Below are positions 33,090 through 33,346 of a stretch of 64,000 nt of DNA, in pieces. The stretch is from Escherichia phage KEP3, in the sequence record PP047753; one strand, 5' to 3'. Position 1 is the first letter of the stretch. Each line of letters starts with the position of its first letter. The translations under genes were made by a program, and so were the position numbers. The notes under the pieces are model-generated. The model made no database searches. It had not been told where the DNA came from and worked only from the letters and a program-made list of their open reading frames with translations.

Positions 33090-33346
33090 GTAAGCCTCTT
33101 TTAAGTAACTATTAAGTTTTAATCTTTTATCTTAACGTATTCTATACGTTATACTTTAAAGCTTTTTAAAAGCTATTAAATAATCTTTTAAGAGTTTTAA
33201 AGTATCTGTATAGTTAAACTGTTAAGTAACCTTTTAAGTAAAAACCCACTTCGCAAAGATTAACACCTTGTCAAGTACATTGTCAACTTGCTTTTTATAA
33301 TTTTTTGCAGTAATGTATGAGGTTAATGATTTTAGAGGGAGTAAAA

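Follow-up and report, generated by a model that had tools for sequence, protein, structure and literature searches.

A divergent AT-rich control region beside the DNA polymerase gene of a Felixounavirus phage has conserved predicted promoters and a word family common to the terminal repeats

The gap between positions 33090 and 33346 of a 64,000-nucleotide (nt) stretch of Escherichia phage KEP3 (record PP047753; hereafter the window) separates two divergent blocks of genes. On its left lies a minus-strand gene for a protein of 140 amino acids (aa; 32667-33089), followed by genes for a 270-aa protein, a dNMP kinase and a primase/helicase. On its right lies the DNA polymerase gene, whose ATG at 33347 agrees with related records, and further on a ligase gene. 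The phage carries a T7-like fused primase-helicase and a family A polymerase. Genes run leftward from the window start to 33089, rightward from 33347 to ~43900 and leftward again beyond, and the GC skew tracks this pattern, with its cumulative minimum at 33 kb. The gap contains 25.7% G+C compared with ~39% for the genome. The AT-richness and divergent flanking genes (140-aa gene on the minus strand, DNA polymerase on the plus strand) described in an original prediction, made from the letters of the window, were thereby confirmed. No conserved small open reading frame (ORF) was found within the conserved core of the gap, a tRNA scan returned none in the window, and an Rfam search of the gap gave no match even at E<=1.

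The 3 kb around the gap share 98.4% identity with Escherichia phage vB_EcoM_DE17 and match 260 phage records, nearly all from Felixounavirus, Suspvirus or Mooglevirus. On this sequence comparison, the window is from a Felixounavirus phage. The DE17 record (OP595146) provided those parts of the ~86-kb genome that lie outside the window. The gap is the gene 96/97 gap of Felix O1. Whichard et al. 2010 (PMC3185647) assumed divergent early promoters at this place, reported no recognisable promoter sequence in it and described temporal control as unknown.

The original prediction viewed the gap as a divergent switch or promoter region, and a conserved leftward promoter of sigma-70 type and a weaker rightward one can indeed be placed there, both as predictions. 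On the minus strand, the predicted -35 element TTGACA (33281-33286, within the previously listed word TTGTCAAC) matches the consensus at 6/6 positions and is invariant. The predicted extended -10 element, TGtTAATCT (33257-33265), follows 18 nt after this TTGACA (33286 to 33281). Its hexamer TAATCT is a 3/6 match that includes A2 and T6, is preceded by TGn and reads TAGTCT in Mooglevirus. The leftward candidate thus combines a 6/6 -35, an 18-nt spacer and an A2/T6 -10, as expected of sigma-70 hexamers and their spacing. It also keeps its hexamers while the spacer varies: 33281-33286 are invariant, 33276-33279 are variable, and the third base is the sole variable one of the -10. Elsewhere the spacer is conserved because a second TTGACA, invariant in the three genera, sits there (33269-33274, minus strand, within the previously listed word TTGTCAAG). 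Inspection of the sequence found no -10 at the proper distance from this second hexamer. The two listed words had been described as a pair separated by seven nucleotides; the pair is present on the plus strand (TTGTCAAG at 33268-33275, TTGTCAAC at 33280-33287), but its members are only 4 nt apart, with a start-to-start distance of 12 bp. Upstream of the -35, the A-tract CTGCAAAAAATTATAAAAAGCAAG (33287-33310, minus strand) may act like an UP element. An A-run lies directly 5′ of TTGACA in all aligned paralogues and orthologues for which upstream sequence was retrieved, and the distal half of the tract differs between genera.

To place this promoter in its genomic context, we listed TTGACA-like hexamers in gaps that are followed by TAnnnT at 16-19 nt. 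The list is a coherent set of promoters that point the same way as the genes, at 423, 1469, 3259, 9312, 18004, 28451, 36053, 38437, 40343 and 44574, and the 33286 site belongs to this intergenic TTGACA...TAnnnT set. By consensus matching, the ASO1B record already marks 33259-33286 as a promoter on the minus strand. Near-identical strong promoters were seen on the minus strand at 423 and 1469 (ctgTTGACA-N17-TAAATT) and at 3259 (TTGACT-N17-TAATAT). The hairpin GGGGAGGGAAT.ACCTTCCCC comes after each of them, and the Felix O1 genome paper lists the corresponding sequences as 39-bp direct repeats. T4-type words were absent from 33000-33450, which hold neither a MotA box (TGCTTNA) nor the late-promoter word TATAAATA; TGCTT at 33289-33293 is 17 nt from TAATGT, and a MotA box needs 11-13 bp. 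The assignment of the leftward promoter is inferred from consensus, conservation, paralogy and orthology.

The rightward candidate, TTGCTT-N17-TAATGT (33288-33316, plus strand; TTGCTT at 33288-33293, TAATGT at 33311-33316), is a weak match (3/6 and 3/6). Its TTGCTT and TA..GT positions are invariant, and its spacer and the stretch after the -10 are variable. The distant IMG/VR contig L048 has TTGCAA-N17-TACTAT at the same place. The leftward and rightward -35 elements are adjacent, back to back. Downstream, the ribosome-binding site AGAGGGAG with the DNA polymerase ATG (33334-33349, plus strand) is invariant across genera.

Beyond the leftward -10, the DNA read leftward consists of 11-13-bp units (ACTTAAAAGgtt, ACTTAACAGttta, ACTATACAGat, ACTTTAAAAct, CTTAAAAGatt and ATTTAATAGctt), all of which are CT-N4-AG words or near relatives. 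Their consensus, (A/T)CTTAA(A/C/T)AG, is degenerate, recurs at ~11-12-bp spacing and defines a subset of the CT-N4-AG words. The repeated word of the original prediction, CTTTTAAG, does occur three times on the plus strand (33098-33105, 33185-33192 and 33231-33238); read leftward it is CTTAAAAG, which is not a promoter hexamer. Two tandem 12-bp units occupy 33216-33239 on the minus strand. The first, the box ACTTAAAAGGTT (33239 to 33228), contains the third CTTTTAAG copy and begins 17 nt after the -10, and the second, ACTTAACAGTTT (33227 to 33216), is identical to the unit CTTAACAGTTT of the terminal repeat described below. Next comes the CT-N4-AG word CTGTATAG (33206-33213; CTATACAG in leftward sense), of which CTGTATAGTTAA is invariant in three genera; distant relatives have the related words TCTATAG and CTGTTTAG at this position. 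The ASO1B record annotates an overlapping segment, ~33188-33214, as a plus-strand promoter.

The most conserved AT-rich core (33151-33205) holds CTTTAAAG, CTTTTTAAAAG, CTATTAAA, the second CTTTTAAG copy (33185-33192) and TTTTAAAG. Its long invariant runs are 33153-64, 33173-80, 33182-92 and 33195-202, and CTTTAAAG is also kept in Yersinia phage P778 and phages phiEa104 and PMBT37. The core forms an imperfect 27-nt inverted repeat with arms 78% complementary, mostly invariant and with almost no informative covariation. Adjoining it, the palindrome TAACGTAT-tct-ATACGTTA (33133-33151) has perfect 8-bp arms. All 7 inner pairs are kept in 8/8 sequences, with double changes from CG to UA or the reverse in four and between UA and AU in two, and the 3-nt centre varies. 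The dyad would fit either an operator-like dimer site or a hairpin in the leftward leader. No convincing further copy of this dyad or of the tandem TTGTCAA pair was found in the window. Finally, the ribosome-binding context AAAGAGGC (33094-33101, minus strand) serves the 140-aa gene, whose ATG reads from 33089 to 33087. It overlaps the first CTTTTAAG copy, being its reverse complement. CCTCT is invariant in 8 sequences from three genera, and the TTTT of this copy becomes GT, AT or AC in Mooglevirus.

Conservation was measured on an alignment of eleven sequences from the three genera Felixounavirus, Suspvirus and Mooglevirus. Invariant columns made up 71% of the gap, compared with 27% of third, 66% of first and 78% of second codon positions of the flanking genes. 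Among 258 records within the genus, 165 showed >=99% identity over 551 bp centred on the gap, and 0 of 260 did so over the surrounding 3 kb. By this measure, purifying selection on the gap is about as strong as on first and second codon positions. Among the three CTTTTAAG copies, only the one at 33185 is invariant across genera; those at 33098 and 33231 become CT(G/A)TTAAG or CTACTAAG in Mooglevirus.

Could the repeated words be a by-product of an AT-rich, low-complexity spacer and of ribosome-site and terminator contexts, with nothing specific about them? Within the gap, CTTTTAAG was found 3 times compared with 0.10 expected from the gap's own dinucleotide shuffles (P=0.0004). However, some 8-mer reached three copies in shuffles of this low-complexity gap with P=0.30, and since the word was chosen after the fact, its reiteration within the gap alone is not significant. 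In the window as a whole, 17 matches were counted against 5.2 +/- 2.2 expected, but the matches are heterogeneous: several are loops of terminator hairpins such as GGGGCTTTTAAGCCCC, others are ribosome-site contexts and most lie in coding sequence. Terminator-like hairpins at 2378, 14067 and 47145 hold CTTTTAAG or CTTAAAAG in their loops or stems, and the window-wide count is inflated by them. Two of the three copies in the gap are, moreover, not strictly conserved. The recurrences of CTTTTAAGAG proposed earlier are real, the first at 40212 (CTTTTAAGAGGG), next to a GGT-rich array, the second at 47145 on the minus strand (CTTTTAAGAGGAAAATTCATAATG), upstream of an 849-aa tail-fibre gene. The alternative offered at the time, a T-run next to an AAGAGG ribosome-binding context, accounts for the 33098 copy and the 47145 site and not for the copies at 33185 and 33231.

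Independent loci, counted with the word fixed beforehand, settled that the motif exceeds chance. In a second divergent gap of the genome, CTTTTAAG was present 3 times compared with 0.074 expected (0/5000 shuffles), and in a 581-bp terminal repeat 3 times compared with 0.21 expected (P=0.0016). When CT[AGT]TTAAG was counted genome-wide in 250-bp windows (mean 0.18), the four richest were two in the terminal-repeat array (7 and 4), the 33090-33346 gap (5) and the second gap (3). CT-N4-AG words were likewise in excess, with 7 found compared with 1.2 expected in the 33090-33346 gap, 7 compared with 1.9 in the second gap and 27 compared with 4.4 in the 581-bp terminal repeat. These counts at loci chosen independently, the genome-wide ranking, purifying selection comparable to that on first and second codon positions, and a box held at a fixed position relative to the conserved promoter in paralogues and distant orthologues all stand against a by-product. 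Such an origin of the words, already disfavoured by selection, paralogy and the independent-locus counts, is in our judgement very unlikely. The motif is real, as a member of a wider word family, and its distribution points to recognition as DNA. Of the recognition element originally proposed, the non-random, position-conserved word common to two other non-coding regions stands, and the proposed transcription factor is at most a candidate.

The second divergent gap (DE17 2314-2562, the gene 40/41 gap of Felix O1) lies outside the window and provided the closest paralogue of the leftward promoter. The sequence it has in common with 33263-33287 (ACACCTTGTCAAGTnnnTTGTCAAC/ACACCTTGTCAAGTcctTTGTCAAC) matches at 23/25 positions. 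It also holds AACCTTTTAAGT, 12/12 identical to 33228-33239, in the same order and orientation, and the distance from AACCTTTTAAGT to the shared 25-mer is 35-36 bp at both divergent gaps. Three CTTTTAAG copies are present in this second gap, and each divergent gap has its own perfect palindrome. The second gap is 93% identical across three genera and contains the invariant palindrome CTTAAAAG-g-CTTTTAAG and the dyad AGATATC-N6-GATATCT. A third copy of the promoter design was found in an internal gap at DE17 13206 (13060-13230). In leftward sense, all three copies consist of an A-tract, TTGAC(A/G), a second TTGACA 12-13 bp on, TAnnnT and, after 15-19 nt, (A/T)CTTAAAAG. The paralogous modules thus have a double TTGAC(A/G), TAnnnT and then ACTTAAAAG.

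The same order, with one or two TTGACA, was found in Suspvirus, Mooglevirus, Yersinia phage P778, Erwinia phage phiEa104, Salmonella phage PMBT37 and contig L048, covering each distant Ounavirinae relative that was compared; the DNA polymerases of the most distant orthologues are only 54-61% identical. In L048, the second TTGACA lies 11 bp after the first, and the sequence TCTAAACAG ggt TCTTAAAAG ac TCTTTAAAG comes after the -10. The flank of the box is AACC in Felixounavirus and GAGTC in Suspvirus and Mooglevirus, and this change occurred in parallel at both divergent gaps, suggesting either one reader for both boxes or an exchange of sequence. In the searchable literature, this subfamily-wide class of promoter, with a double TTGACA and a downstream box, appears to be undescribed.

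The terminal repeats use the same words. In DE17, an ORF-free stretch of 1.46 kb (10240-11700) at a convergent junction is filled with them, mainly as CTTAACAG and CTAACAAG, often exactly 11 bp apart, and Tandem Repeats Finder reported 8-10 copies of TCTTAACAGAT. Convergent terminators lie on either side of the stretch, in which no promoter is evident. For the related phage Pr103Blw, a direct terminal repeat of 581 bp was determined with PhageTerm (PMC8303462). The gap of Pr103Blw (MW481326) is identical to that of the window, and its terminal repeat (positions 1-581) maps to DE17 10795-11376. By this mapping, the 1.46-kb stretch contains the physical genome end. That a family of promoter words is common to the terminal repeats also appears to be undescribed in the searchable literature.

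This location bears on whether the words act as DNA or as RNA. The leader could be an RNA-level element, in which a conserved 160-nt 5′ leader controls the stability, processing or translation of the first gene through hairpins (33151 to 33133; AGCUUUU/AAAAGCU) and repeated ACUUAAAAG words. Consistent with this, the leader folds better than shuffles (z = -2.8), the 7-bp hairpin keeps its pairing through two compensatory changes with a variable loop, and one CUUAAAAG word abuts the Shine-Dalgarno sequence at both divergent gaps, as CTTA(A/T)AAGAGGC. However, the opposite strand folds almost equally (z = -2.4), and such agreement between strands is expected of palindromic DNA. Beyond the small hairpin there is almost no informative covariation, and the leader has no Rfam match. 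Furthermore, the same units fill a terminal repeat bracketed by convergent terminators and without an evident promoter, which favours recognition as DNA. Control at the RNA level seems to us quite unlikely.

The original prediction also noted that divergent regions next to replication genes often hold origins, and the stability of the duplex provided an argument for this. Nowhere in the ~86-kb genome is the duplex less stable than at 33095-33244, whether scored over 100 or over 150 bp, with nearest-neighbour free energies (dG) of -1.05 and -1.075 kcal/mol per bp, compared with -1.069 and -1.127 for the next least stable duplexes. An unwinding element should be AT-rich and lie immediately downstream of a promoter, and 33095-33244 does so, following the conserved predicted promoter ~10 nt past its predicted start, between the primase/helicase operon and the polymerase gene. 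The leader is also long (~150-330 nt, compared with ~40-50 nt for typical leaders in the phage) and AT-rich in relatives that have otherwise diverged. The gap could thus be a transcription-activated origin, in which the leftward promoter fires into an AT-rich unwinding element of ~150 bp and the transcript or an R-loop primes or opens the duplex for the primase-helicase and the family A polymerase. Such an origin is compatible with a promoter region. Precedents exist: at the primary origin of T7, promoters 1.1A and 1.1B are followed by an AT-rich stretch, and T4 oriF (uvsY) and oriG have a middle promoter and a downstream unwinding element. The gap resembles them in having a predicted promoter that would fire into the most meltable segment beside replication genes. 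It differs from them in that the host polymerase would have to stand in for a phage one, the AT-rich part is conserved in sequence and T7-type primase sites are absent.

Several findings count against an origin, or at least do not call for one. The cumulative GC-skew minimum at 33 kb would fit one, but the turn coincides with the change in gene orientation and is therefore not independent evidence. AT-richness alone would suffice for unwinding, yet 71% of columns are invariant, which suggests that the sequence itself is read. The promoter-plus-unit design is repeated at two further loci, one of them in front of the morphogenesis operon. Neither DnaA boxes (TTWTNCACA), long iterons, GATC sites nor T7-type primase sites were found in 33000-33450, words for integration host factor (IHF) were absent from the gap region, and no initiator gene was recognisable. 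Our literature search found no replication mapping for any Ounavirinae phage. We regard a transcription-activated origin as possible, although doubtful. Two more specific forms of origin were rejected. A DnaA-dependent origin of oriC type fails for want of DnaA boxes or GATC clusters in 33000-33450. An iteron origin with an adjacent initiator fails on repeat length, phasing and initiator. Like lambda ori, which is bound by O protein, and like plasmid iterons, the gap has short direct repeats spaced at about one helical turn, with an AT-rich stretch and replication genes adjacent to them. Its units, however, are degenerate 8-9-bp cores spaced 9-13 bp, unlike iterons of 17-22 bp, and, unlike in lambda ori, no initiator gene overlaps or adjoins the repeats and the same units are found at the genome ends.

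We favour, with modest confidence, a reading of the gap as the replication module's divergent early control region, used by host RNA polymerase, with the words and dyad of its leader probably bound by regulatory or architectural protein. Several observations weigh against it. The -10 hexamers in both directions match the consensus at only 3/6 positions. A simple consensus scan of 32000-34500 found fewer promoter-like sites than in shuffles and missed both predicted promoters, since it was too strict on the -10. The gap shares 81% identity with that of Citrobacter phage Moogle, compared with an aligned genome mean of 79%, and several other gaps are equally conserved, so that the 33090-33346 gap is not uniquely constrained. 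Exceptional conservation of the gap was rejected accordingly, as it is no outlier among 150-bp windows or gaps compared with Moogle. Helical phasing is not claimed: the 11.1-bp phase of TTAA is of borderline significance (P=0.055; 0.0125 when restricted to the helical band), no significant period emerged from the variable columns, and -35-like hexamers are phased inconsistently from locus to locus. Literature searches on the Felixounavirus transcriptome, start sites or origin found no paper, and the temporal evidence consists of end-point reverse-transcription PCR (RT-PCR) classes in which the two directions are not cleanly separated. In the RT-PCR of Whichard 2010, 19/21 ORFs maximal at 5 min lie in the two units downstream of double-TTGACA promoters, but these units comprise ~3/4 of all genes (our count, in Whichard numbering), so the timing classes do not discriminate. 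Lastly, the candidate binders tested gave nothing, the 140-aa protein having no DNA-binding match and a Cro/C1-type protein no informative change.

The 140-aa protein (32667-33089, minus strand) belongs to phrog_4039, of unknown function, and occurs only in this phage group. Its model is a long helical hairpin (predicted local distance difference test, pLDDT, 72). No Pfam match was found, and no PDB match below E=0.09. It was rejected as a DNA binder or initiator, since it has no family or structural match. In the PhageMaP screen of Felixounavirus Bas63, the polymerase (gene 47) had negative fitness, and intergenic positions were outside the screen. The 140-aa gene (Bas63 gene 48) is the sole neighbouring gene without values in the published Bas63 knockout screen.

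The Cro/C1-type helix-turn-helix protein is encoded at 41006-41305 on the plus strand (99 aa; HTH_3, E=2.8e-10) and scores 22.7 bits against sigma-70 region 4, just under the cut-off of 24.1. It shares 71% identity with its Moogle counterpart, and its recognition helix is nearly unchanged, so this comparison says nothing on the change in the box flank. It is one candidate reader of the TTGACA-like words. A bolder proposal, which we consider rather unlikely, is that the CT-N4-AG words (CTTAAAAG, CTTAACAG, CTAACAAG and the strong form CTTGACAAG, which contains the -35 hexamer) are one code of a single abundant DNA-binding protein, for which the Cro/C1-type protein is one candidate. Bound to the 581-bp terminal repeats and, near the promoters, to both divergent regions, this protein would link early-promoter shut-off with melting of the least stable segment for replication, and perhaps with the way the genome ends are handled.

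Other features were seen in the rightward block. Its large gaps contain GGT-periodic GT-rich arrays (38530-38770, 39960-40030, 40095-40170 and 40235-40300). On their flanks these arrays have hairpins such as CATCACTTAAGAGTCTTTTAAAAGGGTTTTTAAGTGATG as well as repeated GGTCTTTTAA words, and they are ~82-83% identical to Moogle. The segment 38766-39968, comprising the genes at 38866-39453 and 39456-39896 with their flanks, is 98-99% identical to Moogle compared with 79% for the genome average, which reflects either recent exchange or extreme constraint.

As a divergent early control region, the gap would work as follows. Reading leftward, host RNA polymerase would meet the A-tract, the -35 (33286 to 33281), an 18-nt spacer with the second TTGACA and the extended -10 (33265 to 33257), and would start near 33250. 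The transcript would have an AT-rich leader of ~160 nt up to the ribosome site (33101 to 33094), followed by the 140-aa gene, and the operon would run on into the dNMP kinase, primase/helicase and nucleotide-metabolism genes. The weaker rightward promoter would serve the DNA polymerase gene through a leader of ~24 nt. The unit array, beginning 17 nt after the -10, fills the leader DNA, and the same units also compose the terminal repeats and, in the second divergent gap, the leader. Together with the 33133-33151 dyad, these units would be recognised as DNA by at least one protein of phage or host, sequence-specific or architectural, which when bound to promoter-proximal DNA could tune or shut off early leftward transcription. 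Protein binding is probable, judging from the distribution of the words only.

Strong early promoters of T5 and T7 that are read by the host polymerase combine an upstream A/T block with a conserved initially transcribed region. Like them, the gap has a consensus -35 with an A-tract directly upstream and a TAnnnT -10, and, as in other back-to-back sigma-70 promoters of phage early regions, divergent -35 elements are adjacent and a conserved block lies within the first 10-25 transcribed positions. Unlike them, the gap has a second TTGACA in the spacer, its downstream block is the first unit of an array common to the terminal repeats, and its promoters are predicted from sequence. A further, purely conceptual likeness is to TF1 of phage SPO1, an architectural protein encoded by that phage which prefers sites at the early promoters of its terminal redundancy. 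The shared idea is one DNA-binding protein reading both genome ends and early promoters; in contrast to SPO1, the present analysis identified no HU-type gene or binding protein.

Taken together, these results indicate that the element, although of an ordinary kind, is a real, functional and conserved divergent control region. They supply concrete coordinates for predicted divergent early promoters and define a promoter class, conserved across the subfamily, in which a ACTTAAAAG box lies downstream of a double TTGACA. Typing of Salmonella and E. coli, biocontrol and therapy all make wide use of Felix O1 and its relatives. Should one protein read all three loci, it would offer a simple handle on early shut-off, start of replication and end recognition in a phage group without its own RNA polymerase and without a known sigma or anti-sigma factor of its own, and its sites would be ones to avoid or exploit in engineering such phages.

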